Shown here piece after piece: positions 2,835-50,733 of a DNA stretch of 64,000 nucleotides. The stretch is from the IMG/VR virus record IMGVR_UViG_3300025039_000014, positions 32,001 through 96,000 of that record. The stretch is one strand, 5' to 3'. This stretch comes from a virus. The notes under the pieces are model-generated. The model was not told the DNA's origin. It searched no databases and saw only the letters and a list, made by a program, of their open reading frames with translations. The position numbers were made by a program, and so were the translations under genes. Within the stretch, counting starts at the first letter, position 1. Every line of letters starts with the position of its first letter.

Positions 2835-3240
2835 CACCAACAGCCTCGCGGGCATGATGTGTCCGCACTGCAAGCAGACCAAGCGCTTCGAGATCGAGGT
2901 CAAAGCCTACGCCAGCGTCACCGATGAGGGCGTCGAGGACGTCAACAGCGGGGAGAACGAGTGGTTCAATCACACCCCGATCCGCTGCCCTGCCTGCCAC
3001 ACTCAGGGCGAGGTTGGGAGTTTCACCTACCCACGCGGATATCCCCTCAAGAGCCGCCGTCTCGAGGTCGACCACGACGAGAGAGATTGGCGTCGCGAGA
3101 CACCGGCCGGCAGCACGTTCGAGGTTGATCAGATGGTGTCGCTGACCCGCCGGGTGATCGGGTGCCCTGCCACCGGTGCCACGCTGATCTTCGAAATCAA
3201 CGACATCGACGACGGCTTCGAGGATATGACCGATGAGTGA
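2827..3240 (+). CDS. hypothetical Zn-ribbon protein
   Basis: CPHC...CPAC pairs; start overlaps upstream gene. Confidence 0.65.
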   Translation: MLNTNSLAGMMCPHCKQTKRFEIEVKAYASVTDEGVEDVNSGENEWFNHTPIRCPACHTQGEVGSFTYPRGYPLKSRRLEVDHDERDWRRETPAGSTFEVDQMVSLTRRVIGCPATGATLIFEINDIDDGFEDMTDE

Positions 3241-3451
3241 TCCAGGCTGGTATATCCACCCGTTCGCCCCGGCCAACAGCAAGTTCCACTACTACCGCAA
3301 GGATGGTGGGTCGCTGTGCCGGAAATACACCAAGCTCGGTGGTCAGGTCGACGACGATCCGAAGTATGACCAGGACGAGGCGAACTGCGCAGTCTGTAAG
3401 CGCCGCATTGCAGACCACCGCGCCAATCGCAAGAAGGAGGCGGTCAAATGA
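3233..3451 (+). CDS. small Cys/His hypothetical protein
   Basis: HYY...SLC...CAVC; overlaps both neighbours. Confidence 0.6.
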   Translation: MSDPGWYIHPFAPANSKFHYYRKDGGSLCRKYTKLGGQVDDDPKYDQDEANCAVCKRRIADHRANRKKEAVK

Positions 3452-4068
3452 ATCCGCACCTGTTCGGTAGAGCTAGGGCGTTCGCGATCGCCGCCCATGA
3501 AGCGGTCGGCCAGAAGCGCAAATACACCGGCGAGCCCTACTACTTCCATCCGCTGCAAGTCGCCACGATCGTGCAGTCATTCGGGGGCACCGACGAAATG
3601 GTCGTCGCGGCGCTGCTGCATGACACGGTCGAGGACACCGACATCACGCTCGACATCATCGAGCAAGAGTTCGGCGCGACGGTGGCCAAGCTGGTCGATG
3701 AGCTGACCGACAAGTTCGTCGACCCGGCGATCGGCAACCGAGCGCACCGAAAGACCCTGGAGCGCGAGCGACTGGCGACGATCTCCAAGGAGGCGCAGAC
3801 GATCAAGCTGGCCGACCTGCTGCACAACACCAGCTCGATCGTGCGCTACGACCCCGGCTTCGCGAGAGTCTATCTGACCGAGAAGCGTGCCATCTTGGGA
3901 GGTATGAGACAGGGCAACAAAGCACTCGGCCAGGCGGTGCTGAACCAGCTCGTTCGCTGTGAAGCCAAGCTCAACATGACTCCGATGGCGTCTTGCGGCT
4001 GCGTCTACAGCCTGGCCAAGAACAGCCCGAGTTGCCGAGTGATCTGGCGTTGGCCGGGCATGTCGTGA
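3448..4068 (+). CDS. HD-domain hydrolase, Mesh1/SpoT-type (small alarmone hydrolase-like)
   Basis: AH..GQKRKYTGEPYYFHP, ALLHDTVEDT, IKLADLLHN motifs. Confidence 0.85.
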   Translation: MNPHLFGRARAFAIAAHEAVGQKRKYTGEPYYFHPLQVATIVQSFGGTDEMVVAALLHDTVEDTDITLDIIEQEFGATVAKLVDELTDKFVDPAIGNRAHRKTLERERLATISKEAQTIKLADLLHNTSSIVRYDPGFARVYLTEKRAILGGMRQGNKALGQAVLNQLVRCEAKLNMTPMASCGCVYSLAKNSPSCRVIWRWPGMS

Positions 4069-4253
4069 CACCCTGCCGAGATCATGACTTCGGCCATAAG
4101 CGATACCAGATCGTCTCGGCACCGGAAGGCGCCGACGAGGATGAGGTGCTGGAGTCGTTCGATAGCCAGGAGGAAGCTGAACTGCGTCTCGCAGCGATGA
4201 TCAGTGACGGCGACGACTGTGAACTCTACCTCGTCGACATCGAGGACGAATGA
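4065..4253 (+). CDS. small acidic hypothetical protein
   Basis: GTGA overlap with the HD gene stop; acidic ORF. Confidence 0.5.
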   Translation: MTPCRDHDFGHKRYQIVSAPEGADEDEVLESFDSQEEAELRLAAMISDGDDCELYLVDIEDE

Positions 4254-4438
4254 TGGCCGACTACCTGCTTAACTACGAGATGGACGACGACCCGCGTCAG
4301 GAGCATGAAGTCGAGTTTGAGGCTACTGACGACGACGAGGCTGTCGAGATCGGCATGAGTAAGCTGGGCGATCCCTCCATGGTGGCTTGGTTTACCATCA
4401 CCGACCGACACGGCGAAATCATTAGAGATCAATGGTGA
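4250..4438 (+). CDS. small acidic hypothetical protein
   Basis: ATGA overlap; GAGG RBS. Confidence 0.6.
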   Translation: MMADYLLNYEMDDDPRQEHEVEFEATDDDEAVEIGMSKLGDPSMVAWFTITDRHGEIIRDQW

Positions 4439-9523: not shown

Positions 9524-9661
9524 GGCCTGCAAAATTAAACCAAGGTGTTGATTCAAAACGGTTCGCTGAGACCAACGTGTTGAGATTAACCATCTGATAA
9601 TTAGGGTCTTTTATTATGCAGGCTATCTCGATATGGTCCCGGTTAACAGGAGATCATTGCC

Positions 9662-9961
9662 ATGCAATACACGCTGACCTATCACTTCGTGGACAAGGAA
9701 GGCCGGGTCTATGACACCTGGTTCGAAAGCAGCACCCGGACACAGCCGTGGGAATGTATCGACCTCTCATGGCGTGGCGAGATACCCGTAGCCGGAGACG
9801 AAATTAGCTTCTGGAAACACAGCGGGGAACAACAGCGCCATCGCGTCACGGCGATCATTCAAGATCGTCAATTCTGCTACGGATACCAGGACACCGAGGA
9901 CGTCCAGCATGCATCCACCTGCGATGTGATGCTACGTGCGCGAGTGATCGACATCGACTAG
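9662..9961 (+). CDS. hypothetical protein
   Basis: AGGAG RBS; 99 aa. Confidence 0.6.
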   Translation: MQYTLTYHFVDKEGRVYDTWFESSTRTQPWECIDLSWRGEIPVAGDEISFWKHSGEQQRHRVTAIIQDRQFCYGYQDTEDVQHASTCDVMLRARVIDID

Positions 9962-10133
9962 CGTCGGGAAGCGCTCAATCTGCGCGTCTGAGAGCGTTAC
10001 CTGCTCGACAGTTATCTCGTTACACGTCAGAGACTCCCAGCGACTCCAGCGCGTCTCTGGAGCAATCCCAGTAATCGCAACACCCCTCCCAAAAAGACGT
10101 TGTCGACCCCGGAAGAAAATGCAACTATAAGCA

Positions 10134-10153
10134 GTAAGTCAATACTTACTTAC
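10134..10153. promoter_or_regulatory. operator copy 3
   Basis: GTAAGTCAATACTTACTTAC, 12 bp before an ATG. Confidence 0.75.
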
Positions 10154-10165
10154 GGCTAATAGAAA

Positions 10166-10552
10166 ATGTTCAACCTGGATCAGCTGTTCGTTCGCCGGCC
10201 ACGAGCCGTCCACATCGAACCCTTCACCGTAAACAAGGCCGACGAGGTCATTCGTGACAGCGCTGGCCACCCGATCATTTTCTACATCAAGACCCGCGAA
10301 GGTCGTCGGCTGATCAACCCCGGAATGATGATTGCGACCAAAACTGACGACTATCGCCATCCGATGGACGCCGACGTGTTCAATCGCGATTACGTCGCGC
10401 TGCTGGGCTACGAGAGCGCACTGGTCGAAGAGTTCAAGCGTCAGATCGCCGCTCAGCTCAGCACGGCTCTCGCTAGCGAGGCACCGATCGCAGCGATTAC
10501 CAACCTGGTGGCCATGATCGAGCCGCCGAAATCACTCGAAGTCACGGAGTAA
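10166..10552 (+). CDS. hypothetical phage protein
   Basis: 128 aa with typical codon usage. Confidence 0.65.
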   Translation: MFNLDQLFVRRPRAVHIEPFTVNKADEVIRDSAGHPIIFYIKTREGRRLINPGMMIATKTDDYRHPMDADVFNRDYVALLGYESALVEEFKRQIAAQLSTALASEAPIAAITNLVAMIEPPKSLEVTE

Positions 10553-17185: not shown

Positions 17186-17490
17186 ATAGACCGTGGTGGA
17201 TAGCCGTGGTGCGGGGTGCTGCCAGCCGCGATTTTTGGCGGCGGCGACGTTGCCACGACGGGTTTTTGCCGCTGGTTACTTTGCCACCCAACGATTTTGT
17301 GGCTAACGACTTGGTGATGTTTTCGCCAGCCTGCTAATGATTAGCCACCCAATCGTTTCTTTGCTGGTCAATCCTCCGGTTCGTTCGCGTCATATCCATT
17401 AGCAGCATACGCGTTAATTCTAAGCGTGATTTGCTCGGGGAAATCAATCTTTTTTTGGTCAAATTCCCTCATAGCGGGAATTTATAGGGT

Positions 17491-17545
17491 GTTTACGCGT
17501 CATAGTTTTATTTGTGTTTACGCGTTAACAGTAAATCGATAATCT
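17491..17545 (+). promoter_or_regulatory. putative sigma70 promoter TTTACG-17-TAATCT with two GTTTACGCGT boxes
   Basis: GTTTACGCGT at 17491 and 17516; AT-rich upstream element. Confidence 0.55.
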
Positions 17546-17605
17546 GGATACGTGCTCAAGACGAAGCACACAAAAAAAAGTCTCTCTCTCATTAAGGAAA
17601 TCATC

Positions 17606-18238
17606 ATGAAAATCACAGCTAACGATCGCACTATTGCTACTAACTCCAACGAAAAGAAAGTTTCGTTGTCTGAAAAATTCAATCTTGTCAAGACGCACGT
17701 TTCTTCTCTTGCTATCACGTCTAAGCAAACGAAGATTAAGGAGACGCAAAGCGCAATTATCGACGCATCCAAAAAGCGCGTCGAGAACTACGAAGCGAAA
17801 GCGCAGCGCAACGAAACAGACTATCGCGAATTAACAGTCGAAGTGACTCACGCAAAATATAACGCGTCGTTGCTCGACTTGGACGCAAAAGCGATGAAAT
17901 ACACTATCGACAAGAACATCAATCTCGCATCCGCTGTTAATGAGTCGCGCGAATATAAGAAACGTCTCAAGTCGTTTTTGGAAGCGTGCGCGAACAACGA
18001 CGCATCCAAACTCGACAAAGCGCTAGCGAAGCTACAAGCGCACATGAAAGCGTCCAGCGCATCCGCTATCACTGTCGCGCAAGTCGCGACAATCATGGAA
18101 CACAGCACGACGACGCAAGCGAGCTACTTTAAGAAATTCGCGACAATCCTCGGAGTTGTATCGTCCGAACGCTCTAATCAGTCTCCTATGACAATCAATA
18201 AAGAAAGCGATGTTTATAAAGACTTCGTTTCACTCTAA
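17606..18238 (+). CDS. island protein 1: basic, helical 210-aa protein with possible C-terminal winged helix
   Basis: TAAGGA RBS; one Gly, one Pro, no Trp; followed by a hairpin. Confidence 0.8.
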   Translation: MKITANDRTIATNSNEKKVSLSEKFNLVKTHVSSLAITSKQTKIKETQSAIIDASKKRVENYEAKAQRNETDYRELTVEVTHAKYNASLLDLDAKAMKYTIDKNINLASAVNESREYKKRLKSFLEACANNDASKLDKALAKLQAHMKASSASAITVAQVATIMEHSTTTQASYFKKFATILGVVSSERSNQSPMTINKESDVYKDFVSL

Positions 18239-18251
18239 TTGATCGACACAT

Positions 18252-18278
18252 AAGCGCACTCCTTAGAGTGCGCTTTCT
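18252..18278 (+). terminator. terminator-like hairpin after island gene 1
   Basis: AAGCGCACTC...GAGTGCGCTT followed by a short T tract. Confidence 0.65.
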
Positions 18279-18303
18279 CACTGGATTCCGAGGACAATTC
18301 GAC

Positions 18304-18609
18304 ATGATTAAATTCATTATCCGCAATAACACAAAGCGCTTTTACAATGCGCACGCTGTCGCGCAAGTCGACGCGCAGATGATAAACACTCGCATCGTCT
18401 ACTTCGTTCGCGCTGGATATATCATCGACACGAAAGCGCATCCATCATGCGCAGACTTTGAGCGTCAGCACGTCGCAACATATGCGACACGACAGGATGC
18501 GGAACACGCAGCGTATGACGCAATTGACGGAATCGCTAACGAAGTCGACTTCGACGTGATCGAAGCGTATTTTTATCGCTATCATGTCCAGCAATTCAAA
18601 GCAGCGTAG
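18304..18609 (+). CDS. island protein 2, hypothetical 101 aa
   Basis: GAGGA RBS before ATG; both Gly encoded by GGA. Confidence 0.7.
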   Translation: MIKFIIRNNTKRFYNAHAVAQVDAQMINTRIVYFVRAGYIIDTKAHPSCADFERQHVATYATRQDAEHAAYDAIDGIANEVDFDVIEAYFYRYHVQQFKAA

Positions 18610-18827
18610 CGCGTCCAGCAGCGCGCAGAGAGCGCGTTAACGTCAATCCGCTGTCATGATATGGATTCGATGTTAGCGCGTCTCTGAGGACGAAATAGAG
18701 CGATTGAGGATTAGCTAATGAAAGCGAGGACGATGGAGACATTAGGACGACATGAATTAGCAAAGTCTTAGAAATTCCCGACTTAGTGGCTGGGCATAGC
18801 CGCCTCAATTTCCCATTCCCGGCACTC

Positions 18828-19610: not shown

Positions 19611-20933
<1,323 letters not shown>

Positions 20934-22077: not shown

Positions 22078-23676
22078 CTAGCCGGTTGTTATACCCATCG
22101 TCCCGAGATCGAAATCCCGAGGACCATAGACGATATTCTCGTTGAATCCCGGTGTGTTCTGGACGATCGCTAACCGCTCAAGCGAGTGTTGCCGCAAGTG
22201 GTTGTTCGACTGATCAATAAAGTCGATGATCAGCGCCACGTTGGCACCCTGCTTCTTCGCCCGCAGTCCGCGACCGATACGTTGTCTCAGTGCTACTTCT
22301 GCCTTCCCACCACCGGCCAGGATCACGCACCCTACCGCTGGCACGTCCACACCGACATCCATGATCGTCGAGCCAATCAGCACTTGGGTATTGCCGTCAC
22401 GGAGATCGTTGAGCGCATCTTGCCGAGTCTGCTTCGATGATTCGCCGAAGACGAAATTAACCCGAAGGCCGGCTTCGGACATACGTTTTTCGAGCAGTCG
22501 CCCGTGCGCCTTCTGGAGCACCAAGAGCATGACGGGTAAACCGAGCTCGGCAGCACGCAAAGCCTCCTTCACAATTAAGGCATTGCGCGTAGCGTTATAT
22601 ATGATGCCGAGCTTATACGCTCGCTGCCATCCGGTGCCATTCCCCAGCACCGTGCTTTTCACACCAGTCTCATTCATCTGTTTCAGGCCGAGCCTGTCGG
22701 GACTATAACCGACGGTGTGATATCGAAAATAGGGGCGCGCCAAAACACCGCGCTCGATGAGCTCTTTTTCGGTAACGCGAGCCATGACCGGACCCGTGCA
22801 AGCCAGCAGTCGCATGTTGGCTTCCTGGTCGTCCTTCATGAACGGTGTCGCTGTCAGCGCGAGTCTGAAATGCGCGTTGCGACAGGCATCCATGATGGCG
22901 TAATACGAGTTGCCCGAGACCTCGTGCGCTTCTTCCAAGATCACGAATTCGACCATCTCCAGATATTTGAGCGTTGCTGCTCTGACCTTCGCCTGGCGTT
23001 CCTGTTCCGCTTTCGGCTTCGAACGATCCGGCTCCTTGAGCCGCTGCACCAGCGTCTGAACCATTGCCACCGTGACGGCACGACGCGGCGCGAACTCGCC
23101 GTCTCCAATGACGCCGACCTGCTTGCCCTTGAAGAACGTATCGCCGTTGTCCAACTGGAACGTGAACGATTCTTCGAAGGCTCTCTGCATCTGATACATC
23201 AGCACAAATCGGGTGGTGATGAACAGCGTCGGCCGGCGAATCCTCGAGACCGCCATGTTGGCCACCCGACTCTTGCCGCCACCCGTCGCGATCTGCGCGA
23301 TCCCCGCCCCTTCCCGCACTAGCGTGCGCACGACCTTCGGCTGGTAGTCGTATTGAGCGGTGTAGCCGAAACCGTCGATTCGAGGCATGTCCGGGCCGAG
23401 TGCTTCCGGCAGAGGCTTCTGGATCACCTGGGGCACAAAACCGCGTTTCTTGAGCTCTGCGCACAGCGGCTTGGTGAATCCCGCCGGGAACGTCGCATTA
23501 CCCCATTCGAAAAACGTCGAGACGCCATCCCAGTCGTCGTTCCTGGCAGCGTATGAGTATTCCGATCCGGCTGACTTATACGAGGTCAAGGATTGGACAA
23601 TTTCTTTCACCTTGACGCTGTCGTCGACCAGCTTGGCGACCCTGGCATTACGGGCGATTCGAATGATCTGCCCCAT
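22078..23676 (-). CDS. superfamily 2 helicase
   Basis: ATGGGKS, ILEEAH, LTATP, DVGVDVP, QRIGRGLR. Confidence 0.9.
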   Translation of the reverse strand: MGQIIRIARNARVAKLVDDSVKVKEIVQSLTSYKSAGSEYSYAARNDDWDGVSTFFEWGNATFPAGFTKPLCAELKKRGFVPQVIQKPLPEALGPDMPRIDGFGYTAQYDYQPKVVRTLVREGAGIAQIATGGGKSRVANMAVSRIRRPTLFITTRFVLMYQMQRAFEESFTFQLDNGDTFFKGKQVGVIGDGEFAPRRAVTVAMVQTLVQRLKEPDRSKPKAEQERQAKVRAATLKYLEMVEFVILEEAHEVSGNSYYAIMDACRNAHFRLALTATPFMKDDQEANMRLLACTGPVMARVTEKELIERGVLARPYFRYHTVGYSPDRLGLKQMNETGVKSTVLGNGTGWQRAYKLGIIYNATRNALIVKEALRAAELGLPVMLLVLQKAHGRLLEKRMSEAGLRVNFVFGESSKQTRQDALNDLRDGNTQVLIGSTIMDVGVDVPAVGCVILAGGGKAEVALRQRIGRGLRAKKQGANVALIIDFIDQSNNHLRQHSLERLAIVQNTPGFNENIVYGPRDFDLGTMGITTG

Positions 23677-23714
23677 GTGATTGCTCTCCGTGTGGCGATT
23701 GCCTTACACTGCCT

Positions 23715-23734
23715 GTAAGTAAGTGCTTACTTAC
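23715..23734. promoter_or_regulatory. operator copy 7, in the divergent helicase/ParB promoter region
   Basis: GTAAGTAAGTGCTTACTTAC. Confidence 0.8.
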
Positions 23735-23771
23735 CTTTAATGCGGGAAAAAATGTCCACGCGTAAGTATAA

Positions 23772-24452
23772 GTGAAGACTAACACGATGAGCGAAATCCA
23801 GAAAGTAGACCCTCGGGAACTCCGCAAAAATTCTTGGAATACCAACAAGATGACGGCGGAAAACGAGGAAAAGCTGAGAACCAGCGTCCGGCGCAATGGC
23901 TTGCTCGGCGTGGTGCTGGTTCGAGAGCTGAAAGACGGCTCTATGGAGATCGTCGGCGGCGAACACCGCGTCGATATCGCTATCGAGGACGGTCAGTCAA
24001 CGGTCAACGTCCAAAACCTGGGCAAGATCAGCGATGCTCGCGCCAAGGAAATGATGCTGCTGGACAACGGCCGCTACGGACAGGATGACCCATTCGAACT
24101 GGCCGGCATTCTGGACGAGCTCGCCGCCGGCGGCGACGTGGATCTCTCCACCTTCATGCCCTTCGCCAGCGAGGACATGGACAAGCTGCTAAGCACCACC
24201 GACATCGACCTCGACAGTCTCGATTACCTCGACGAGCCGGACTACACCGGCGTCGAAGTCACCACCGAGAAGCGTGAGTCGAAAGTCCAGTCGCATCAGG
24301 TGCTGCGCTTCAAGGTCACGATGGACGACGCCGCGGCCGTGAAGCGCGTGATCGACAAGATCATGGAGTCACGGGGCTTCACCGAAGAGGACTCGCTGAC
24401 CAACGCCGGTGATGCCCTGGTCTACCTGGCGGGGGAATACGCCAATGAGTAA
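23772..24452 (+). CDS. ParB/Srx N-terminal domain protein 1 (start may be 23787)
   Basis: LRKNSWNTN...LRTSVRRNG...IVGGEHR. Confidence 0.85.
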   Translation: MKTNTMSEIQKVDPRELRKNSWNTNKMTAENEEKLRTSVRRNGLLGVVLVRELKDGSMEIVGGEHRVDIAIEDGQSTVNVQNLGKISDARAKEMMLLDNGRYGQDDPFELAGILDELAAGGDVDLSTFMPFASEDMDKLLSTTDIDLDSLDYLDEPDYTGVEVTTEKRESKVQSHQVLRFKVTMDDAAAVKRVIDKIMESRGFTEEDSLTNAGDALVYLAGEYANE

Positions 24453-25119
24453 CGACCGCGGCGGCCAGGAGATCGTCTACCTCGATCCCAAGACCCTTAT
24501 TCCCTACGAGAACAACGTCAAGCGCCACCCGCGCAAGCACATCGAGGCGCTGAAAGCTCTGATGCTGCGTCACGGCTTCTCGAAGGGAAACCCCATCCAG
24601 GTCGACCGCAACATGGTCATCATCGCTGGACACGGCCGCACGGAAGCCGCGTGCGAGCTTGAGATGCCGGTGGTGCCGGTTGTCATCCGTTCGGACCTGT
24701 CCGACGACGAGGTGAAGCGCTGGCGTCTGGAAGAGAACAAGTCGGTCTCCAACGACTACGACGTGGTCGGCATGAAGGCCGAGATTGCCGATCTACTGGA
24801 TCTCGATGGGCCGTTGGTCGGCTTCGACGAGAAAGAGTGGGCGGTGCTGACCGAAGACCTCACGGCTGACTTCGATGCCGACTCGATGATCGCCGATCTC
24901 GAGGCCGAGATGGAATCCGCCGCGAAGCATCACGACGAGACCACCGAGAAGGCTCGCACCGAACAGGTGGCGATCACCGATCTTCTGGGATTCCGGCATG
25001 TGCCGGCGGCGCAGCAGCGCAAGATCGTCAAGTTCGTGGCGCGCCTCGAAGCTGAAACCGGCAAGACCGGCGCTGATGCCTTCCTGGCTCACATCGATCA
25101 GAGCGAGGGCGCGGCATGA
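24445..25119 (+). CDS. ParB/Srx N-terminal domain protein 2
   Basis: LIPYENNVKRH...IIAGHGRTEA...RLEENK. Confidence 0.85.
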   Translation: MSNDRGGQEIVYLDPKTLIPYENNVKRHPRKHIEALKALMLRHGFSKGNPIQVDRNMVIIAGHGRTEAACELEMPVVPVVIRSDLSDDEVKRWRLEENKSVSNDYDVVGMKAEIADLLDLDGPLVGFDEKEWAVLTEDLTADFDADSMIADLEAEMESAAKHHDETTEKARTEQVAITDLLGFRHVPAAQQRKIVKFVARLEAETGKTGADAFLAHIDQSEGAA

Positions 25120-25754
25120 GCGACATCGTCATCGACAAGCGATTCAGCTCCCGCGTGACGCGCACCGATCGTGTGCTCGAAGTGGCCGAAGCCTTCGGGC
25201 TGGGCCTTGAGGATCGCGAGTTCGTGATCTACGACCAGCTGTCCGTCCAGGTCGAGCGTGGTGATGTCGTCTACATCAACGGGCAGTCCGGTTCCGGCAA
25301 GTCGTTGGCGCTGCGCGAGATCGCTCGCCAGTTGGCCGACCAGGGCATGCGCGTCGCCAACATCGACGAGATCGCCCTGGAAGACGTCCCGTTGATCGAT
25401 CAGATCGGCACCGACACCAACGACGCGGTTCGCCTGCTGTCGCTGGCTGGGCTCAACGATGCCTATCTGCTGGTGCGATCCCCTGCCGAGCTTTCCGATG
25501 GTCAGAAATATCGCTTCCGGCTGGCCAAGGTCATCGAGTCCGGCGCCGACGTGTGGGTCGCCGACGAGTTCTGCGCGGTCTTGGATCGCGAAACCGCAAA
25601 GGTCGTCTCGTTCAACGTCCAGCGCACGGCACGCAAGGCTGGCGCCACGGTGATCGTGGCCACCACCCATACCGACTTGGTAGAAGACCTCAAGCCAAGT
25701 CTGGTGATCGAGAAGTATTACAAGGCCAAAGTCAGCATGGAGAGACCCGCATGA
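25116..25754 (+). CDS. stand-alone ABC-type ATPase
   Basis: GQSGSGKS, LSDGQKYR signature, VADEF Walker B, ATTH; no membrane partner nearby. Confidence 0.9.
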   Translation: MSDIVIDKRFSSRVTRTDRVLEVAEAFGLGLEDREFVIYDQLSVQVERGDVVYINGQSGSGKSLALREIARQLADQGMRVANIDEIALEDVPLIDQIGTDTNDAVRLLSLAGLNDAYLLVRSPAELSDGQKYRFRLAKVIESGADVWVADEFCAVLDRETAKVVSFNVQRTARKAGATVIVATTHTDLVEDLKPSLVIEKYYKAKVSMERPA

Positions 25755-26230
25755 GTGATGCTTCGACAACAGACGGACCCGCTACCGATACCTCTACGGT
25801 CGACCATGCGAAGACCATTCAGATCGTCGAGAAGCGCTGCAAGAAGCACGGTGTGGCGATCGTCACGATCCAGCCGTTCAGTGCGCGCCTGTTCGTGTTC
25901 AGAGGTCTCGATACCTACAGCGACAAGCTCAAGGCGATCTTCGGCGTCGAGACGCAGATGGGCTGCATCCTGCAAGACCTGAACGTCGGTGGTTTCTTCG
26001 GCTCCGAGTTGGACGTCAACGGCTGCCCGATTCTGGTGCTGGCGATCGATGGCACGACGAAATACCCGGAAGAAGCCATCTGGCACGAAGCGCTGCACGC
26101 GACCTTCGTCATCCTGGACCTCTACGGGGTCGAGTTCGACGTCGATAACCACGAAATCTACACCTACACCCAGGGCTACATCGTCAGTCAGATTCGCCAG
26201 CAACTCTACGGGCGAGAGTCGTTTCGATGA
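25751..26230 (+). CDS. HEXXH zincin-like hypothetical protein
   Basis: IWHEALH...HEIYTY; ATGA overlaps on both sides. Confidence 0.65.
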   Translation: MSDASTTDGPATDTSTVDHAKTIQIVEKRCKKHGVAIVTIQPFSARLFVFRGLDTYSDKLKAIFGVETQMGCILQDLNVGGFFGSELDVNGCPILVLAIDGTTKYPEEAIWHEALHATFVILDLYGVEFDVDNHEIYTYTQGYIVSQIRQQLYGRESFR

Positions 26231-27132
26231 TCCCGAATGACGTCGCGATCCGCCGGCCGGCCGCCTCTGAGTGGTCGGAGGGCTTCTCGTTGCTGTCGCG
26301 AATGGTCCTCGAGCGCGGCACCCGCGAAGACTGGCTGGCGCTGCACGATCTTCACTACAAGACCGAGACTGACTCCTTCGGCCAGACCTACTACCGCTGC
26401 ACGCTCGACGGCACGCTGATCGGCGTGGTCGTCACGGCCTACCCGAAGCTGTTGCTGGAACCGCGTCATCGCATGTTCCCGAAGATCAAGCCGACCGGCG
26501 GCTCCAAGCTCACCAATACGGCGCGGGCGAAGTTCGTGAATGACCTGTTCGCGATCGTCAACCGCTCGGTCGTTGACACGCTCTACCGCGGTGTCGGCGT
26601 CTCCTATCGGATGCTCAACCTGGCCGCCCGGATGCATCCACGCCAGGTGGTGGAGATCCAATCGGCCATGTCGAAATTCTCGCCCTTCGCCATGAAGGCA
26701 GGGTTCCTCTTCGCCAAGCCGATCCCGAACAAGAACTACGCCAAAGGCGTAGCGATGGTCACTCGTTTCTTCGATAGCCATCCGATGGACACCGTCGGCC
26801 TGCTCGAAGAGATCGACGCCATGCCGGACTCGCTCAAGCTCAAGACCCTGCGTGAGCTCACGGCGTTCTATTACAAGTGCTCGGCGCTTGAGAAGACCGG
26901 TCGCAACCTGGGTCGCGGCCTGGCTGACCTGGATTACGAGCCTGCCGAGCTGATCGCCAAGATTCAGGGACTGATCTTCGCCTCCCCGCTCTATGGCGCC
27001 TATCGCAATCCTGACTTTGGCCGTGCGCTGCCCGACCGGCTACCGCTGGCCGCGTTCGATCTCCAAAGTCCCAACGAACCGCTGAACCTCGCTGCCCTGG
27101 AAACCCTGATTGGAAGCGTCCCCGATGAGTGA
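26227..27132 (+). CDS. GNAT-fold (Mom-like) acyltransferase
   Basis: LHY, RSVVDTLYRGVG (acyl-CoA binding motif A), KAGF (motif B). Confidence 0.75.
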   Translation: MIPNDVAIRRPAASEWSEGFSLLSRMVLERGTREDWLALHDLHYKTETDSFGQTYYRCTLDGTLIGVVVTAYPKLLLEPRHRMFPKIKPTGGSKLTNTARAKFVNDLFAIVNRSVVDTLYRGVGVSYRMLNLAARMHPRQVVEIQSAMSKFSPFAMKAGFLFAKPIPNKNYAKGVAMVTRFFDSHPMDTVGLLEEIDAMPDSLKLKTLRELTAFYYKCSALEKTGRNLGRGLADLDYEPAELIAKIQGLIFASPLYGAYRNPDFGRALPDRLPLAAFDLQSPNEPLNLAALETLIGSVPDE

Positions 27133-27418
27133 ATACCGCATGACCCAGAAGCAGCTCCAGATCATCACCGCGATCCACGAGCACCAGAAGAACCACAAGC
27201 AGGACATCGACCTGGATCAGCTGCTGGGCTCTCTGCCCTACGAGACGACCAAGGAATCGATGCAGTTCAGCCTGCGAGCCCTGATCAAGAAGGGTCTGCT
27301 GGCGAAGGTAGGCGACGCCGTGATTCGTCGTGGACGGGCTCGTCGGACCTATCGGCTGACGCTGATGGCCAAGGAAATGTTCCGGCTGGGGTCAGAAAAA
27401 TCACACACACCAGCTTAA
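27125..27418 (+). CDS. winged-helix DNA-binding protein
   Basis: TQKQLQII...DLDQLL...SMQFSLRALIKKGLL...RRTYRLT. Confidence 0.75.
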   Translation: MSEYRMTQKQLQIITAIHEHQKNHKQDIDLDQLLGSLPYETTKESMQFSLRALIKKGLLAKVGDAVIRRGRARRTYRLTLMAKEMFRLGSEKSHTPA

Positions 27419-28108
27419 AGTATTGATACAATCGGCAGAAGCTGTGCCAAGCAAATATCACTGATACCACCGATAAAACTCATACCACCGAACGCCCACT
27501 CGACACCGATATCACCGACTCCCCGCGACTCACACCTGCCGACATGACCGCTATCACCTGGCTTCACCTCCGCTAAGACCGACTGCACGCGATACCCAGG
27601 TTCAAGACCGAGACCACCGAGACAACCGATCGCTGACAGACCGCGCTGAAAGCGCAACGACGACGCACTGAACGAACCGACAGTCACCCGGCGCCACGAT
27701 CACCGATATCACCGCCCTATTCCGACGGCCAAGAGATCCGACCATCCCCAGAATGGTCCCAGGTGGGAAGCGAGTCCGGTATGTGTCCGCATCATGTTCT
27801 GGAAATTCAGGTCGGTCCCGTCCGACAAGGTCAATATCTATCGGCCTCATTGGCACAAACTCTCCAGACATAGAGCGCAGTTGGCGCGAAAAATCGTCGT
27901 CTGGGAGACGGGGAAGTTGCGCCTTCTCCCTTTGTGCGTTTCTGGCGAAAAATTCTGAGAGCACAGGATAACGCGAAATAATGCTTTCTAATCAATGCTT
28001 TACAGAGAAAACGCAACCCCGCTCATCCGAGGATATTGGGATCAAAAACACCCCTTCATCCGAGGCATCCAAATTCTCTCTAAAGTATTGTTTTGAAACG
28101 AGAAAAGA

Positions 28109-28182: not shown

Positions 28183-28240
28183 GTTTACGCAAAGTTAACG
28201 CGTAAACGTAAACGAAAAACCATCTGATATACGCGTAAAA
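28183..28240. promoter_or_regulatory. GTTTACGC...GCGTAAAC inverted repeat and TTTACGCGT boxes upstream of terS
   Basis: 28194-28207 is the exact reverse complement of 17516-17529. Confidence 0.6.
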
Positions 28241-28459: not shown

Positions 28460-29104
28460 ATGAGCGACACGAAGACTGCACGAAAGCGAATGTCTCCGAG
28501 CCAGTGGGCAGAAGCGCGTGCGATGTGGGCGTCGGGCGAGTTCACGCTGGAACAGATCGCCGAGAAATACGGCGTCGCCCGCGAAACCCTGTCGCGCCGG
28601 TTCGCCAAGGACGGGGTCAAGAAGGGTCAGAGCCAGATCGATCGCAAGGTCGAGCAGGAGCTGATCGAGAAAGCCGTCCAGGCTGCCGACAAGTGGGCGG
28701 AGCGCGGCGAACAAGCCCGCGAATCGTTCTTCAAGATGAACAAGATGGTCGTCGCGCTGACCGGCAAGGTCTTGCAAGACGCGATCGCCGGGGGCAAGGG
28801 GCTCTACACCGCCCAGGCCGACCTCAAGGCACTCCAGATGACATCGATCATTCTGGAGAAGACTCGGGCGAATCAGTGGGCCGTCGTGGGTCTCGACAAG
28901 GAAACCGACAACGACGACGAAATCCCCCAGCTGCTGGTGCGCACGCTGACCCCGGATCAGGTCGTCGAACTCCAGCGCATGCAGCATCAGGTAACGCCGG
29001 AAGACGAGATCGAGGTCGGCGACGCCGAACCCTACCTCGAAGACATCGATGTTCTCGATGACGAAGACGACGATGCGGTTATCGTCGAAGAGGCCGACGA
29101 CTAA
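28460..29104 (+). CDS. terS: terminase small subunit
   Basis: N-terminal HTH (TLEQIAEKYGVARETLSRRF); directly upstream of terL. Confidence 0.8.
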   Translation: MSDTKTARKRMSPSQWAEARAMWASGEFTLEQIAEKYGVARETLSRRFAKDGVKKGQSQIDRKVEQELIEKAVQAADKWAERGEQARESFFKMNKMVVALTGKVLQDAIAGGKGLYTAQADLKALQMTSIILEKTRANQWAVVGLDKETDNDDEIPQLLVRTLTPDQVVELQRMQHQVTPEDEIEVGDAEPYLEDIDVLDDEDDDAVIVEEADD

Positions 29105-30339
29105 TGGCCGCCGTCATCGATCTCAGCCTTCACGACAAGCAGATGGAAGTCTTCTCCGACCCGGCGCGATTCAAGGTCGTCGTGGCCGGCCGGCGCTGGG
29201 GCAAGTCTCGTCTGTCGCTGACCTCGATGCTGCGCGCCGCCCGGATGCCCCGCTCTCGGGTCTGGTATATCGCGCCGACCTTCCGCATGGCCAAGCAGAT
29301 CATGTGGGACGAGCTGCTGGAGATGATCCCCAAGCAGTGGGTCAGGAAGACCAACCACTCGACCCTTACGGTGGTGCTCAAGAACAAGACCGAAATCTCG
29401 CTCAAGGGTGCCGACCGCCCCGATACCCTGCGCGGTGTCGCGCTGAACTACGTGGTCCTCGACGAATTTCAGGACATGAAGGCCGACGTCTGGGTCAAGG
29501 TGCTTCGCCCGACGCTGTCGTCAACCGGCGGACACGCACTGATCATCGGCACCCCGAAGGCGTTCAACTACCTCTACGAGCTGTGGAAGCTCGGTCAGGA
29601 TGGCCGCTCGAAGCAGTGGAAGTCCTGGCAGTTCGAAACCGCCTCATCGCCCTTCATCCCGGCATCCGAAATCGAAGCAGCCCGCGAGGACATGGACCCC
29701 AAGTCGTTCGCACAGGAATACCTGGCGAGCTTCGCCACCATGTCGGGCCGAGTCTACTACCCGTTCGATCGCATGGAGCATGTCGGCACCTATGCGTTCA
29801 ACCCCGCCCTGCCGATCTGGGTGGGCCAGGATTTCAACATCGACCCGATGTCCTCGGTGGTCATGCAGCCGCAGAGCAACGGCGATATCTGGATCGTCGA
29901 CGAGATGATTTTGCCATCCTCGAATACGGCCGAAGTGTGTGACGAGCTGGAGCGCAAGTTCTGGCGCTGGCAGTCCAATTTGACGGTTTACCCCGATCCA
30001 GCCGGAGGCCAGCGCCAACACGCCCGCGGCGAAACCGATATGGACATCTTTCGGGAACGCGGCTTCAAGCGGCTCAAATACAAGCGCCGGCACCCGGCGA
30101 TCGCCGACCGCGTCAACGCGGTCAACTCGATGCTGATGAGTGCATCCGGCCAGGTTCGCCTGCGCGTGGACGCGAGCTGCCGTCAAACGATCTCGGCCTT
30201 CGAACAGACGCTTTACAAGCCAGGCAGTCGGGACATCGACAAGGCCGCCGGTGTGGAGCACCCGGCCGATGCGCTGGGCTACTGCATCGACCTCGAACGT
30301 CCGGTGCGGAAATTCAAGCCGATGGGCGCTTCTTTCTGA
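29104..30339 (+). CDS. terL: terminase large subunit
   Basis: AGRRWGKS, LRG, VVLDE, IGTP, GQDFN, HPADALGY. Confidence 0.95.
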   Translation: MAAVIDLSLHDKQMEVFSDPARFKVVVAGRRWGKSRLSLTSMLRAARMPRSRVWYIAPTFRMAKQIMWDELLEMIPKQWVRKTNHSTLTVVLKNKTEISLKGADRPDTLRGVALNYVVLDEFQDMKADVWVKVLRPTLSSTGGHALIIGTPKAFNYLYELWKLGQDGRSKQWKSWQFETASSPFIPASEIEAAREDMDPKSFAQEYLASFATMSGRVYYPFDRMEHVGTYAFNPALPIWVGQDFNIDPMSSVVMQPQSNGDIWIVDEMILPSSNTAEVCDELERKFWRWQSNLTVYPDPAGGQRQHARGETDMDIFRERGFKRLKYKRRHPAIADRVNAVNSMLMSASGQVRLRVDASCRQTISAFEQTLYKPGSRDIDKAAGVEHPADALGYCIDLERPVRKFKPMGASF

Positions 30340-30405: not shown

Positions 30406-31938
30406 GTGAACCGCATGGATCTCAAGAAACTCGTCAAGCGTCGCCATCCCGAGTTCGCGGGAAAGCTGACTCACTGGCAGTTCCTCCATGCCACTTATCA
30501 GGGTGGACGGGATTGGTTTGACCAACACATCTTCCGCTATCTGAAAGAAGGCGATTGCGAGTTCAAGGATCGCAAGTCACGCGCCTACCGTTTCAACCAC
30601 ACCCGAGAAATCGTCAACCTGGTCAACAAATACGTCTTTCGCGGTGACATCACCCGCAAGAAGGACGCTGACAAGGCGATTCTCGACTTCTGGAAACGAA
30701 CCACTCGCGACGGCATCTGCATCGACGAATTCATGCGTCAGGCAGATATCGAATCCTCGATCTACGGTCGCGTCTGGATCGTCGTCGACTCCACCCACAA
30801 AGGCGAAGCGGTATCCAAGGCCGACGAGCGTTTGAACGGCTCGAAGACCTACGCCTACGTGGTGCCACCGACCCACATGCTCGATATGGGCACTGACGAT
30901 GACGGCCAACTGCTGTGGATGTTGTTCTACGAACCGACCCGAGACGACGATGACCCGTTTACGTCCTCCGGTGCGATCGAGGACCGCTGGCGTCTCTGGA
31001 CCCGAACGAGCTGGTCTCTGTATGCCCTGAGTGAAGAGAAAGGGCCGGACGGCGAGCCCCTGGTCATCGAGATGGATAAGGGCGACAACCACCTGGGCGA
31101 AGTGCCGGTGGTGCCGCTCGACGCGATGGTCTGTCATGAGTCGCGCTACTCGTCACCGGCGCTGATCAATGACATCGCCTACCTGGATCGAGCGGTCGCC
31201 AACTACCTCTCGAACCTCGACGCGATCATCCAGGACCAGACGTTTTCGCAGCTGGCGATTCCGGCGCAGAACATGATGCCGGGCGACAAGGAATACAACC
31301 AGATGGTCGCGATGGGCACCAACCGGGTGTTCGTCTTCGACGGTGGCGAAGGTGGTTCAGGCCCCTTCTTCCTCTCGCCTGACGTCAAGCAGGCGCATCT
31401 GATCCTCGAAGTGGTCAGCAAGATCATCAACGAAATCTACCACTCGGTAGGTGTCGCCGGTGAGCGGACCAAAGAGGACAACTCGAAGGGTATCGACAAC
31501 AGCTCTGGCGTCGCCAAAGCCTACGACTTCGAGCGGGTCAACAGCCTGCTTGCATCGAAGTCGAGCGCCCTGCAACGCGCGGAGAACCGAATTTCCCGAC
31601 TGGCGGCGATGTATGCCGGAGTCGAGATGGACGCGGATGACCGCGTCGTGGATTACCCGAAGTCGTATGACGTTCGGGGTCTGACGGATGAATTCGCTGT
31701 GGCCGAGCAACTGAGCCTCATCGACGCGCCGGAAACCGTCAGACGCGAGCAGATGCGCTCGCTGGTCGACAAGCTCTTCCCGAACCTCACGGACGATGTG
31801 CGTGCGGCGATCGAGAAGGAACTGGAGAAGTTCCCCGCGTCACCCGAAGCCTTGCCTGGCATGCCGCCACTTCCGCAGCAGCCGGCACAGCAAGAGGATG
31901 ACGCCCCTACCCAGCAGGACCAGTGGACCGCCGAGTGA
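30406..31938 (+). CDS. portal protein
   Basis: Position after terL; size; YGRVWIVVD, LGEVPVV, SGVAK motifs. Confidence 0.85.
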   Translation: MNRMDLKKLVKRRHPEFAGKLTHWQFLHATYQGGRDWFDQHIFRYLKEGDCEFKDRKSRAYRFNHTREIVNLVNKYVFRGDITRKKDADKAILDFWKRTTRDGICIDEFMRQADIESSIYGRVWIVVDSTHKGEAVSKADERLNGSKTYAYVVPPTHMLDMGTDDDGQLLWMLFYEPTRDDDDPFTSSGAIEDRWRLWTRTSWSLYALSEEKGPDGEPLVIEMDKGDNHLGEVPVVPLDAMVCHESRYSSPALINDIAYLDRAVANYLSNLDAIIQDQTFSQLAIPAQNMMPGDKEYNQMVAMGTNRVFVFDGGEGGSGPFFLSPDVKQAHLILEVVSKIINEIYHSVGVAGERTKEDNSKGIDNSSGVAKAYDFERVNSLLASKSSALQRAENRISRLAAMYAGVEMDADDRVVDYPKSYDVRGLTDEFAVAEQLSLIDAPETVRREQMRSLVDKLFPNLTDDVRAAIEKELEKFPASPEALPGMPPLPQQPAQQEDDAPTQQDQWTAE

Positions 31939-49100: not shown

Positions 49101-50733
49101 CGCGATGACAGCCTACGAAACCAAAATCGATGCTAATTCGTCACGTTCGTCGCTTTCCACGAACCTGACCAGCCAGTATCAGAGCTTCGTCGCGAGTCAG
49201 CTCACCAAATACGAAACCACGTCCACCGCCAACCTGGCGCGATCCACCCTACAGACCGACGTTCAGGCGTATACCGACAACAAGTTTTCGGCGGTTCAGC
49301 TCACCGCGTCGGCGACCGCCTCGGGCACCAGTCTCGTTACCAACGGACTGTTCGCCAACGGTTCGATCGAGGGCTGGGGCGATTCCACGCTGGTCAGGAT
49401 TCTCAACAAATCAGACAGCGCGTCGGTCATCTACAAGAACTGCCCCACCAATTACTTCGCCGAGTTCGGTGACGATCAGCACGACCTCGACCGCTACTTC
49501 GTCGGCGAGTGGAAAGACTGCGCCGCCCACGAAGAGTTTGCCGGCAAGTTCAGTTGTTGTCGGGGTAGTAGTTCCGGCGGCCGGCTGGATATCGCGATTC
49601 AGTGGCGAGACGTCGATGGCGTGCTTTTCTTAGGCGAAACCATGCAAACGGTGACGTTGACCGATGAGGCTGCCGGCTCCTGGCAAACCTCGGAGGTCAG
49701 CTCGACCATCTCCCCCGGTGGAGCGGTGAGAGCCCGCGTTCTCATTACCCGCAAGGCCGGGAGTTTCGGAAAGCTCTATTTCACCAACGTGGTGATGGTG
49801 CGCAACGACCCGGCACTGAACGCCTTCTACACCGCCAAGGTCAGCTCGAATGGCCTTATCGGAGGCTTTGGCATCTACAACAACGGTCTGACTGTTGACG
49901 CCGGATTCGAGGTCGACAAGTTCTGGATCGGCCGCACGGAGGGCAAGGTCAAACCCTTCGTCGTGATGAACGGCAGCGTCTACATGGACGACGCCATGAT
50001 CAACACCGTGACGATCGGCAAGCTGCGCTCGGCGACAGGCGGCGTCATCATTTCCGGCGGCAAGATCAAGGCGGAATTTATCGACGCTGACAATCTGGTC
50101 GTGAAATCAGCTGCGACGTTCACCGGTCAGGGCTCGCTATCCAAGAAAAACTCGCTGGGCTATTCGGAGGTTACAGGCACCAAGCCGCCGACCGATGCTG
50201 ACCGCACGGCTTCGAACATCTCGTATGACACCAAGCGCGCCGGCGGTCGAAATATCGGCGACGTGCTCGAGGACGTGGCTGTCACTCGAAACCGGACGAA
50301 CTACTGGATTCGTCCAGGCGAGACGACGATCAATGGCAACGCCATCTACACCGGGGACGCATACGTCGACACCCTTCAGATCAAGGGCGGAGCCATCATC
50401 GTGCCGCGTCAGGCGTTCGGTGTGGGTCAGGCTTCGGCTTCGCTCAGCATCGGCTCAGGCGTCTTCCCAGGCCCGATGGTGACGCTGATCTGCATGGCGT
50501 CGTTCACCAAACTCGGCGATGGCGACCAGCGGGTGATCATCGAGTATCGCAATCGCGAGCAGTTGAACGAGTGGATCAAGCTGGTGACGGAATGGCCGGA
50601 CACCTACACGATCTCAACCATCATGGGCTTTCGTCAGATCGGCAACACCGGCGTTCACGATGTCCGTGCGCGCTTCACCGACTCGAACAGTGACGGTCGA
50701 GTGTCACTGGTCTTCTTCCTGGGGCAACGCTAA
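43153..50733 (+). CDS. tail tip/central fibre host-specificity protein (gpI+gpJ-like), 2526 aa
   Basis: GGGGSK gpI-like N-terminus; IPLIYG, SEGEIDG, WSNNPAW; FN3-like region; E..AR..AD coiled coils. Confidence 0.9.
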   Translation: MSTSLIPVVQIEPQHVNLIVVYNALDLRDRETAKLNFDPSKTLADYMQGLEDVDQWSVSINGESYSPDDWVLINPAPDDYITVVPIPYGGGGGSKNIMRMVALVAIAVVAPYAAAYMLGTTVAAMGIAGAALTGVITMAGGMLVNALLPPSVPSANNSVSQSESPTYGIDGSKNTQTEDTIIPLIYGSYRYAGNIVNLSTDNEGKTQIVKAMMVVSEGEIDGISDFQVNDQPFDNYEDVETDWRPGAANQTAYGWFQDTKRMVNKAITLSTEEWAQHTTEGEIDRFRLDYLWPQGLVSINDKGKRTVYQAEMKAQYRKAGTTAWIDLPQRIYTEAATSQPYRVSFESPKLAEGIYEIRTRRLNNKATEVNVSDTVQLADIVEIIDDRVPYNHTASFAIRVRLTDQLGSLPKMTAKIRGIKVAKYTYNGELITREWSNNPAWIAVDLLTNKRYGAGLVLSRIDWRAFNDWAQFCLDNELTFNGVFDTFSNAWDAAQVVLRVGHARFTTIGTTLSLAIYRASEPVMMFGNGNIIEGSLKLNWSSIEDRSNEFEIEFYDKELDNKQNTVRLINEDSIARGDMQRISTTRMVGIDNEKQAYNEALFQKAMNEGLVMSGQLEAPIEAMVCGVGDVVLVQHDMPQWGESGRIRPGSTAKIIKIDRTLEIGASPVNMSMMVHHSVVKRASPTVAIVNHNSGSVFIQGVPASVAATRLVFGDQDRRILSIRSANGYTEIQLADTDGLAVGTGFELWDTDVIEARQIASYDAETSQITLVSALGQVPADLSNYMIGVTDKAAKPFTVVGVSGDGDYSRVLKLIEYNETIFDPANFQPTPIYSRPVQTVQHVRDLTVIEDSIIKSASLISSLIVSWSLPEDGNYAGAKVYIARNGGEMEIHGIAGAGVTSYHLQAKFGEELVIRVVAYDGGGRTANYNTAPQVTYNVTGSLDVPANVTGFTARLDRDGVELNWIKLADPDVVGYEIREGEDWETGTLIVEDHAGTRFFTTLKENGVYSYWIKAIDLRGAMSRVATTASVRELITPPVPDGVSITVTAFTATIVIAAAPFGITWEVWRSNAPLLNGQILSNAVLAGTGDTVQIVGLDYDTTYYLYIRGRSAFGVSAWYPTQFQTSADPAEIMEFIAGQIDESALAQELAKEIEKISAPEGIVGSVNERLAGVRDDLADEAVRVDGLINEANESTNKVQQNLLDETVRLDGRVDGISLSIDATQLTLSQRDDELAQRLLEAETSIVDEARASKDRDSALTETVQGITATFEDNNAYLGELRRVEAERDAIQAIQFEALAVTAANRTASIRTEKQIRIDGDTAEASERSALEVRVNDNEGAIVTESLTRADELSVISSRIGELSAKLDAVPQFGSGFEPGTDLTQWQVPTTDTLTVQSVDIYQGTQSALLTSSSATPTPGTDGIGVTRALIPSGAAEAFEGYEIVVQIAAKQPADNPTAEFAIAFATNGVGSSTWRMFTPTPSWDVYQFTWQVPEGSTVGVNNIAIWADTSGSGKGLLVDGVTVRRANAEISEITAAITTEQEARVSADEALSTDIQATTARLGLAEAAILEEITARATAEEATTGQITAITTRVGDNETRIAEETQARTTQTDALATRTTAMETRMGEAEGAITSETETRATADEALGLQIEEIKAEMGGDTAAVVEERQARVTADSALAYQISSVSARVDDAAAQLLNEQRVQIEQASLDAVQFEAIEASRAGSTASIRTEQNIRLEDDLAEASRRESIETQVGDLESTITEEAVARSTADMTLADQISQVSSKVDQNQASVSEQIKTSITGNSLIRDGSFELGDLALWGGSAVSISNIRERRDSTSPLNQNAPARYFVELDDVNHDTTAYLHNQGMVPVTPGAQYTFDASYAVRGEGDISIEFSVRFFDQDGNQVSWPSIKRVNHAETVAWLKLGPVTLTAPADGVQAMIIIGRISGGSGSLLVTNIRGYRVDEALASKIDQVQASIGPNIATAMTAYETKIDANSSRSSLSTNLTSQYQSFVASQLTKYETTSTANLARSTLQTDVQAYTDNKFSAVQLTASATASGTSLVTNGLFANGSIEGWGDSTLVRILNKSDSASVIYKNCPTNYFAEFGDDQHDLDRYFVGEWKDCAAHEEFAGKFSCCRGSSSGGRLDIAIQWRDVDGVLFLGETMQTVTLTDEAAGSWQTSEVSSTISPGGAVRARVLITRKAGSFGKLYFTNVVMVRNDPALNAFYTAKVSSNGLIGGFGIYNNGLTVDAGFEVDKFWIGRTEGKVKPFVVMNGSVYMDDAMINTVTIGKLRSATGGVIISGGKIKAEFIDADNLVVKSAATFTGQGSLSKKNSLGYSEVTGTKPPTDADRTASNISYDTKRAGGRNIGDVLEDVAVTRNRTNYWIRPGETTINGNAIYTGDAYVDTLQIKGGAIIVPRQAFGVGQASASLSIGSGVFPGPMVTLICMASFTKLGDGDQRVIIEYRNREQLNEWIKLVTEWPDTYTISTIMGFRQIGNTGVHDVRARFTDSNSDGRVSLVFFLGQR

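Follow-up and report, generated by a model that had tools for sequence, protein, structure and literature searches.

The combination of a GNAT-fold acyltransferase with an ABC ATPase has been predicted to acylate a base in DNA (Iyer et al. 2021, PMC7824862, section 3.4.7, citing Iyer et al. 2013, NAR). The use of ParB proteins as helpers of DNA-modifying enzymes, on which the initial annotation of the locus described here had relied, is supported by two known systems: ParB homologues activate phage thymine dioxygenases (5mYOX) on duplex DNA (PMC13229309), and DpdB, a ParB-like ATPase, serves DpdA, as summarised in PMC12839542. Here we describe a related gene combination in a 64,000-nucleotide stretch of viral DNA (the window), which covers positions 32,001 to 96,000 of IMG/VR record IMGVR_UViG_3300025039_000014 and is part of a single virus record of 104,759 bp with a CheckV completeness of 95%. 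The segment 22078-27418 carries a helicase gene and, divergent from it, an operon for two ParB/Srx proteins, an ABC ATPase, an HExxH protein, a GNAT-fold protein and a small winged helix-turn-helix (wHTH) protein, situated just upstream of the terminase genes terS and terL.

A late-acting DNA base-modification (acylation) module is the best reading of this locus, and we give it roughly even chances. As a computational prediction, the DNA-modification reading has already been published (PMC7824862).

A split form of the ABC-GNAT fusion

The GNAT protein belongs to phrog_886 (4.5e-115) and has no match in Pfam or NCBIfam; its fused relatives, described below, give weak matches to Acetyltransf_1/7. 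An AF2 model built on 45 homologues (pLDDT 87) assigns the product of 26227-27132 to the GNAT fold. The best VIA comparison reached Z 11.7, with a root-mean-square deviation (rmsd) of 2.9 over 123 residues, and 170 chains scored at Z>=8. Foldseek gave 44 matches at E<=1e-3, led by TmcA (4.5e-5), with Naa60 and NAT10 in the top five. A helical insert occupies residues ~165-250. The motifs LHDLHY, YRGVGVS (motif A) and KAGF can be read in the translation, in agreement with the LHY, YRGVG and KAGF elements pointed out in the initial annotation. In motif A all 45 homologues retain R121 and G124, G122 is at least 90% conserved among them, and the equivalent in the fused family is YRGIGLG. Invariance of this acyl-CoA-binding motif argues for a working enzyme.

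The initial annotation had also compared this protein with phage Mu Mom and proposed Foldseek as a check. The comparison holds for the fold: Mom was found at VIA Z 10.6 (rank 16; rmsd 3.5 over 143 residues) and at Foldseek rank 13 (2e-4). It does not extend to sequence, as neither Pfam nor the PDB sequences, which include Mom (8bv8), gave a match between the two. Because the Mom score is within 1.1 of the top generic GNATs and not above that of ordinary ones, and because there is no sequence match, likeness to Mom is confined to the fold level.

The ABC protein matches PF00005 (4e-11), and its Walker A, LSDGQ, Walker B and H-loop motifs are all readable. With intact motifs and no permease gene adjoining it, the description as a soluble ATPase stands.

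A profile search with the GNAT protein through 1.8 billion representatives returned 951 relatives, the distant ones being 450-500 aa long. In these, the GNAT profile aligns with residues ~200-480 (1e-15 to 1e-27), and the N-terminal half is PF00005. The phage ABC protein matches fused archaeal proteins at 1e-63 to 1e-65 (phmmer), the phage GNAT protein matches fused proteins at 1e-18 to 1e-20, and the consensus of the fused proteins has the motifs of both. Some relatives already bear the name "ABC-type ATPase fused to acetyltransferase". Based on these sequence relationships, the phage ABC and GNAT proteins are assigned as a split form of this family, COG2401. Members of COG2401 are single polypeptides, whereas here the two domains are encoded by separate genes with a 159-aa open reading frame (ORF) between them. 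Since ABC and GNAT are joined in one polypeptide in hundreds of proteins, the two phage products can be expected to act together. A search for longer homologues disclosed no close fused form, only one tail-fibre chimera, and NCBIfam returned only generic ABC matches on the fused proteins. In two metagenomic proteins, P0201 (1260 aa) and P0197 (791 aa), a family-B DNA polymerase (PolB) is fused N-terminal to ABC-GNAT. If real, this fusion connects the ABC-GNAT enzyme with DNA synthesis.

Organization of the operon and its conservation

All seven genes proposed in the initial annotation were found in the ORF list, as a minus-strand gene of 532 aa and six plus-strand genes, and domain searches agree with the divergent arrangement of a superfamily 2 (SF2) helicase gene and an overlapping operon upstream of terS/terL (Table 1). 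Translation indicates later starts than the ORF limits for ParB2, the HExxH protein and the wHTH protein. With these starts every plus-strand junction is an overlap of 4 or 8 nt, and the six genes are a translationally coupled operon.

Both RecA-like domains are present in the helicase (Pfam ResIII 2e-14, Helicase_C 5e-12; phrog_16 8e-84), and its nearest solved relatives in a PDB sequence search are XPBII (1e-16), Rad25 (2e-12) and UvsW (2e-8). The two ParB/Srx assignments were both retained, on different grounds. ParB1 matches Pfam ParB_N (2.3e-7, over the cut-off) and phrog_723 (1.8e-53), shows a weak match to the Spo0J/Noc N-domain, and has a readable GGEHR motif. ParB2 has no Pfam match; it is assigned by phrog_930 (2e-56) and by the ParB domain of phrog_498 and of PADLOC MTase_II, which are ParB-methyltransferase fusions (3e-12), and it carries a readable AGHGR motif of the GxxR ParB type. 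For the wHTH protein (phrog_900, 9e-21) the gene is real, and the winged helix is suggested by matches below threshold to Dimerisation (9e-4), DnaD_N, Sar and Lrs14. PADLOC detected no known defence system, giving only generic helicase, ABC and ParB-MTase domain matches.

The earlier statement that no parA is present was extended to the whole 104.8-kb record: PF13614 has no match, and PF01656 matches nothing but the P-loop in the ABC ATPase. Because the record has no ParA, a partition role for the ParB proteins was rejected. A ParA-like protein is encoded away from both module ParB genes in SSU5 (30497-31162) and in RHEph10 (gp090).

In the HExxH protein, WHEALH and E135 are invariant among eight homologues and lie on consecutive helices of an AF2 model (pLDDT 79). 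The HExxH motif followed by a third ligand on the next helix constitutes a zincin-like signature. The model matched no solved fold (best VIA Z 4.6, best Foldseek E 0.05, no peptidase prominent), and the profile had no match among PDB sequences.

Conservation was studied in 85 related phage loci, among them those of SSU5-like phage-plasmids, Pseudomonas nickie-like phages, Rhizobium RHEph10-like phages and Stenotrophomonas phages. The order helicase (minus strand), then ParB1, ParB2, ABC, a variable slot, GNAT, wHTH, terS, terL and portal is kept in 80-85 of the 85. The ABC gene is present in all of them, is 54-82% identical, and is about as conserved as terL; the helicase occurs in 81 loci, ParB1 in 82, ParB2 in 84 and wHTH in 83. 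The slot between ABC and GNAT is empty in 21 loci, holds an 84-aa ORF in ~39 and the HExxH gene in ~18, and is occupied by other ORFs elsewhere. Because slot content varies in this way, the HExxH protein is an optional accessory and not part of the module core; the gene and motif recognised in the initial annotation are real, but membership in the core machine is not upheld.

Outside this group, 80 archaeal (Bathyarchaeia, Nitrososphaeria and others) and Firmicutes loci carry the fused gene within morphogenesis modules of tailed proviruses. The fused gene directly adjoins terL in 48 of the 80, and otherwise capsid, portal, tail-tube or terminase genes; ParB is nearly missing beside it. At the left end of Gordonia phage Axumite, ParB-like gp1 is followed by gp2, gp3 and the terminase gp4, and gp2 matches the fused ABC-GNAT profile with 99.7% probability in an alignment that runs through motif A. 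Rhodococcus phage Jace has ParB gp85, then ATP-binding gp86, an ABC-GNAT homologue, then an aspartate decarboxylase (gp87). ParB thus adjoins ABC-GNAT in three separate phage groups (SSU5/nickie/RHEph10, Axumite gp1-gp2 and Jace gp85-gp86). As they are seen in unrelated virus groups, the associations of ParB with ABC-GNAT, and of ABC-GNAT with packaging genes, are recurrent beyond inherited synteny. The module can be described as a fixed companion of packaging genes across very distant viruses which repeatedly recruits ParB, and ABC-GNAT proteins, routinely mislabelled as "ABC transporter", occur widely in tailed viruses that infect bacteria or archaea.

Some additional neighbours were recorded. 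In a Firmicutes (Fredinandcohnia) prophage an Amidoligase_2 enzyme (9534-10424 of the locus) lies between ABC-GNAT and terminase; this enzyme and the aspartate decarboxylase of Jace could make or extend an amino-acid-like adduct. RHEph10 gp056 (49672-50181) is an ASCH-domain protein. The ASCH family comprises readers or amidohydrolases of N4-acylcytosine. As a conserved "reader/eraser" partner the ASCH protein was rejected, being absent from the present genome, nickie, SSU5 and BUCTxx99.

Table 1. Genes and sequence features of the locus (positions in the window)
Feature	Position	Strand	Evidence and remarks
Two-gene island without GG[C/G/T] and [A/C/G]CC	17488..18777	+	1289-bp gap
SF2 helicase/translocase, XPB/Rad25/UvsW-like	22078..23676	-	Pfam, PHROG, PDB relatives; divergent from operon
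ParB/Srx N-domain protein 1 (ParB1)	23772..24452	+	Pfam ParB_N, phrog_723
ParB/Srx-like protein 2 (ParB2)	24445..25119	+	phrog_930; ORF opens at GTG 24409, probable start ATG 24445
Soluble ABC ATPase	25116..25754	+	PF00005; 212 aa
HExxH protein	25751..26230	+	WHEALH; 159 aa from probable start ATG 25751, not 225
GNAT-fold acyltransferase (predicted)	26227..27132	+	phrog_886, AF2 model; 301 aa
Small wHTH-like protein	27125..27418	+	phrog_900; ~97 aa; ORF opens at TTG 27110, probable start ATG 27125
(C)ACCGA repeat array, strand-polarised	27455..27715	+	between wHTH gene and terS
Two operator-like TTAACGCGTAAA palindromes	28195..28239	.	upstream of terS; motif shared with island start
terS-like DNA-binding protein	28460-29104	+	phrog_867, HTH_7
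terL	29104-30339	+	Terminase_6N/6C, phrog_2
Portal	30406-31938	+	phrog_145

An island free of GG[C/G/T] and repeats near the module

The initial annotation took the target of the operon to be GG[C/G/T] from an island in the same window, and the island itself is supported by the counts. Within 17488-18777, GGC, GGG, GGT, GCC, CCC and ACC are all absent, while GGA (19) and TCC (16-17) occur about as often as expected; elsewhere in the genome, the longest gap free of GG[C/G/T] (GGB) and [A/C/G]CC (VCC) is 112 bp. Among 276 degenerate trinucleotide patterns, GGB/VCC was the best (log10P about -56). Island protein 1 no longer has Gly and Pro at positions where its homologue in the closest relative, IMGVR_UViG_2711768162_000009 (L003), retains them; because of this loss, the constraint on the island is taken to override protein sequence. 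The island protein has no family and no informative Atlas neighbour, and a promoter scan showed no consensus sigma-70 site at the island start.

Comparable islands exist in relatives. In phage nickie, 1137 bp (103937-105074) lack any GG or CC (log10P -60.7) and include gp019, an island protein homologue. RHEph10 has only five GG/CC in ~1 kb (~99000-100000), and three IMG/VR contigs (L170-L172) have 0.9-1.3 kb with no GG/CC. Among 80 further helicase-anchored loci, 16 have islands, of which 14 are GG/CC-free and two lack GGB/VCC only (working labels of relatives' island loci: L189, L194, L201, L211, L213, L216, L218-L221, L224, L227, L243, L251). Each of the 16 is located 1.5-9 kb past the helicase gene's 3' end, and the genomes have a G+C content of 41-66%. 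Across the phage supergroup the islands measure 0.4-1.5 kb and are conserved but patchy, and in low-GC lineages an island is present although no homologue of island protein 1 could be detected.

Between the island and the helicase gene of the present genome a full-length seryl-tRNA synthetase is encoded (19650-20933; Seryl_tRNA_N and class II core, phrog_16140 1e-196). This region has no nucleotide match in L003.

Two types of repeats were observed. Between the operon and terS, ACCG occurs 13 times versus a single CGGT in 27419-27800, with direct-repeat families D1-D3. The ACCGA array is possibly a pac site or a protein-loading site for ParB or TerS, and it is a candidate parS, at which ParB would clamp in a CTP-dependent manner. 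Exact TTTACGCGT is found in the window at 17492, 17517, 28198 (minus strand) and 28231 (minus strand) and nowhere else. The near-palindrome TTTACGCGT(T)AA is thus present in pairs at the island start (17492-17528) and upstream of terS (28195-28239), and a copy with one mismatch closely precedes ParB1 (23758). These pairs represent a possible shared operator or protein-loading site.

Proposed function and comparison with described systems

The analysis shows the genes with their folds, the correspondence of ABC and GNAT to the two halves of the fusion, and the repeated gene neighbourhoods, and the following mechanism is proposed on this basis. The GNAT protein and its split-off ABC partner would transfer an acyl group, probably derived from acyl-CoA, to an exocyclic amino group on a base of duplex phage DNA. 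The ABC ATPase, dimerising at the expense of ATP, would act as a clamp on the DNA or present it, and loading or activation of the enzyme on the duplex would fall to the two ParB/Srx proteins, a role that ParB homologues have for thymine dioxygenases and DpdA. The XPB-like translocase may open or feed DNA, and the wHTH protein may act in regulation or as a subunit that targets DNA. The mark would be put on DNA about to be packaged, as suggested by the position of the module just upstream of terS/terL, and would give protection in the next host. From this context we infer that DNA is the substrate, and likewise how and when it is modified and whether a sequence rule applies. Nucleic-acid acetyltransferases (TmcA and NAT10), as well as Mom, are among the best Foldseek matches, in line with DNA base acylation; the lack of ParA, of common DNA methyltransferases and of TGT in the record also speaks for it. 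Of the earlier proposal that the operon modifies DNA at packaging, the first half is retained as the best reading, given the published prediction (PMC7824862) and the recurrent ParB/ABC-GNAT/terminase neighbourhoods; a coupling to packaging is suggested by gene position. The module is carried by the cultured phages nickie, RHEph10 and SSU5, so that the chemistry and the sequence rule are directly testable.

Several observations weigh against DNA base acylation. In the literature searched, no experiment on any module member was found, nor any experimental work on DNA modification in SSU5-like or nickie-like phages. The ABC domain resembles the transporter/ABC-F type and not the SMC/Rad50/UvrA type, and many protein N-terminal acetyltransferases score equal to the other structural neighbours of the GNAT protein in VIA. 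Within the SSU5/nickie/RHEph10 group, terminase adjacency is synteny inherited in one virus lineage, and the PolB fusions are metagenomic predictions. Other observations weaken the link between module and island. The whole genomes of SSU5 and BUCTxx99 contain no island despite a complete module, and of the 38 related loci with 8 kb or more of sequence to the right, only 10 have one. In L003, depletion of the homologous island (2900-4300) mainly concerns the sense strand (GGB 8 versus 47 expected, VCC 49 versus 86, GGA normal), as might result from a strand-specific process or an intermediate state.

Protein acetylation, RNA acetylation and a non-catalytic accessory role in packaging each account for less of the context. 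If ABC-GNAT were a protein acetyltransferase modifying virion, terminase or host proteins late in infection, its location among morphogenesis genes would reflect protein substrates. The high scores of NatA/Ard1/RimI/Naa60-type enzymes (Z 10.8-11.4, as high as any GNAT), the capsid, portal and terminase genes adjoining the archaeal provirus gene, and an ABC domain like those of ABC-F and transporters are all in accordance with this. However, scores for the GNAT fold do not discriminate between classes of substrate, and the repeated ParB partner, the PolB fusions and the XPB-like helicase are left unexplained; we therefore consider protein acetylation unlikely. Modification of tRNA or rRNA by a TmcA/NAT10-like, ATPase-driven cytidine acetyltransferase, tuning translation for the phage, would fit the top Foldseek match to TmcA, the place of NAT10 in the top five and the same logic of an ATPase coupled to a GNAT. 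Related phages have tRNA genes, and the present one has the seryl-tRNA synthetase. Yet the ATPase belongs to the ABC class and not to the RecD-like helicases, searches revealed no tRNA-binding domain, and the ParB partner, the PolB fusions and the terminase linkage indicate DNA, making this reading improbable.

A DNA-handling accessory of packaging or genome maintenance, in which ParB is loaded near terS and ABC acts as a clamp with no covalent mark on bases, would agree with the presence of the module beside terS/terL in every lineage, with the oriented ACCG array between operon and terS, and with the phage-plasmid nature of the SSU5-like relatives. The invariant acyl-CoA motif of the GNAT protein, however, implies catalysis, virulent phages also keep the module, and ParA is missing here and encoded separately in SSU5. 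An accessory of this type is also improbable.

The target is a separate question. In its specific form, the proposal states that the module acylates G or C at GG/CC (GG[C/G/T] in the present genome) on capsid-bound DNA, marking ~1 bp in 10, and that the island is a cassette kept free of the mark and thus readable or untouched on entry. We hold this to be possible but rather doubtful. It is somewhat more likely than not that the island is due to an agent other than the operon product, such as sites of a phage primase or nuclease, a host nuclease or protospacer adjacent motif (PAM), or a constraint on early mRNA. SSU5 and BUCTxx99, the restriction of islands to 10 of 38 loci and the strand bias in L003 all favour such an agent. 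On the other hand, islands occur across very different hosts, at 41-66% G+C and always 1.5-9 kb past the helicase 3' end. Because of this diversity of hosts and base composition, a phage-encoded agent is favoured. As other possible writers, N6/N4, C5 and D12 methyltransferases and TGT were searched for in the record and none was found. A phyletic-profile search (tblastn sensitivity) for a gene common to island phages and missing from SSU5/BUCTxx99 gave only low-information matches and no other candidate. A plain CC/GG PAM was rejected for this genome, in which GGA/TCC are at expected levels. The module is the only evident candidate agent for the islands; their positional association with it is conserved, and a functional link is plausible, though on balance not likely. 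If the link is true, the genome carries the sequence rule of a novel hypermodification as a negative image, and a new GG/CC base modification would bear on restriction evasion, sequencing artefacts and phage engineering.

Compared with described systems, the module shares the ParB N-terminal domain with ParABS, but ParA is absent from the record, the module ParBs occur in virulent relatives too, and the ParA of SSU5 is at a separate locus. Phage Mu Mom, an adenine N6 modifier, acts late in infection. It is likewise phage-encoded and of GNAT fold, but has no ABC ATPase or ParB partner and differs in the helical insert. The RNA cytidine N4-acetyltransferases TmcA and NAT10, the leading Foldseek matches, also combine an NTPase with a GNAT; however, their ATPase is of helicase type and not ABC, their substrate is RNA, and they are single polypeptides with tRNA-binding domains. 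In 5mYOX-ParB (PMC13229309) and DpdA-DpdB (PMC12839542), a ParB/Srx-family gene adjoins the gene of a duplex-DNA modifier, as here, and the modifier needs ParB in those systems; the present combination differs in its predicted acyltransferase partner and its two ParB paralogues, on which the enzyme may depend. The closest counterpart is the GNAT-ABC system of Iyer et al. 2021 (PMC7824862; COG2401/MK0520-type), which is likewise virus-encoded and predicted and has homologous domains, whereas here the two domains are separate genes split by a variable gene and set in a fixed block with two ParBs, a wHTH protein and a divergent XPB-like helicase.

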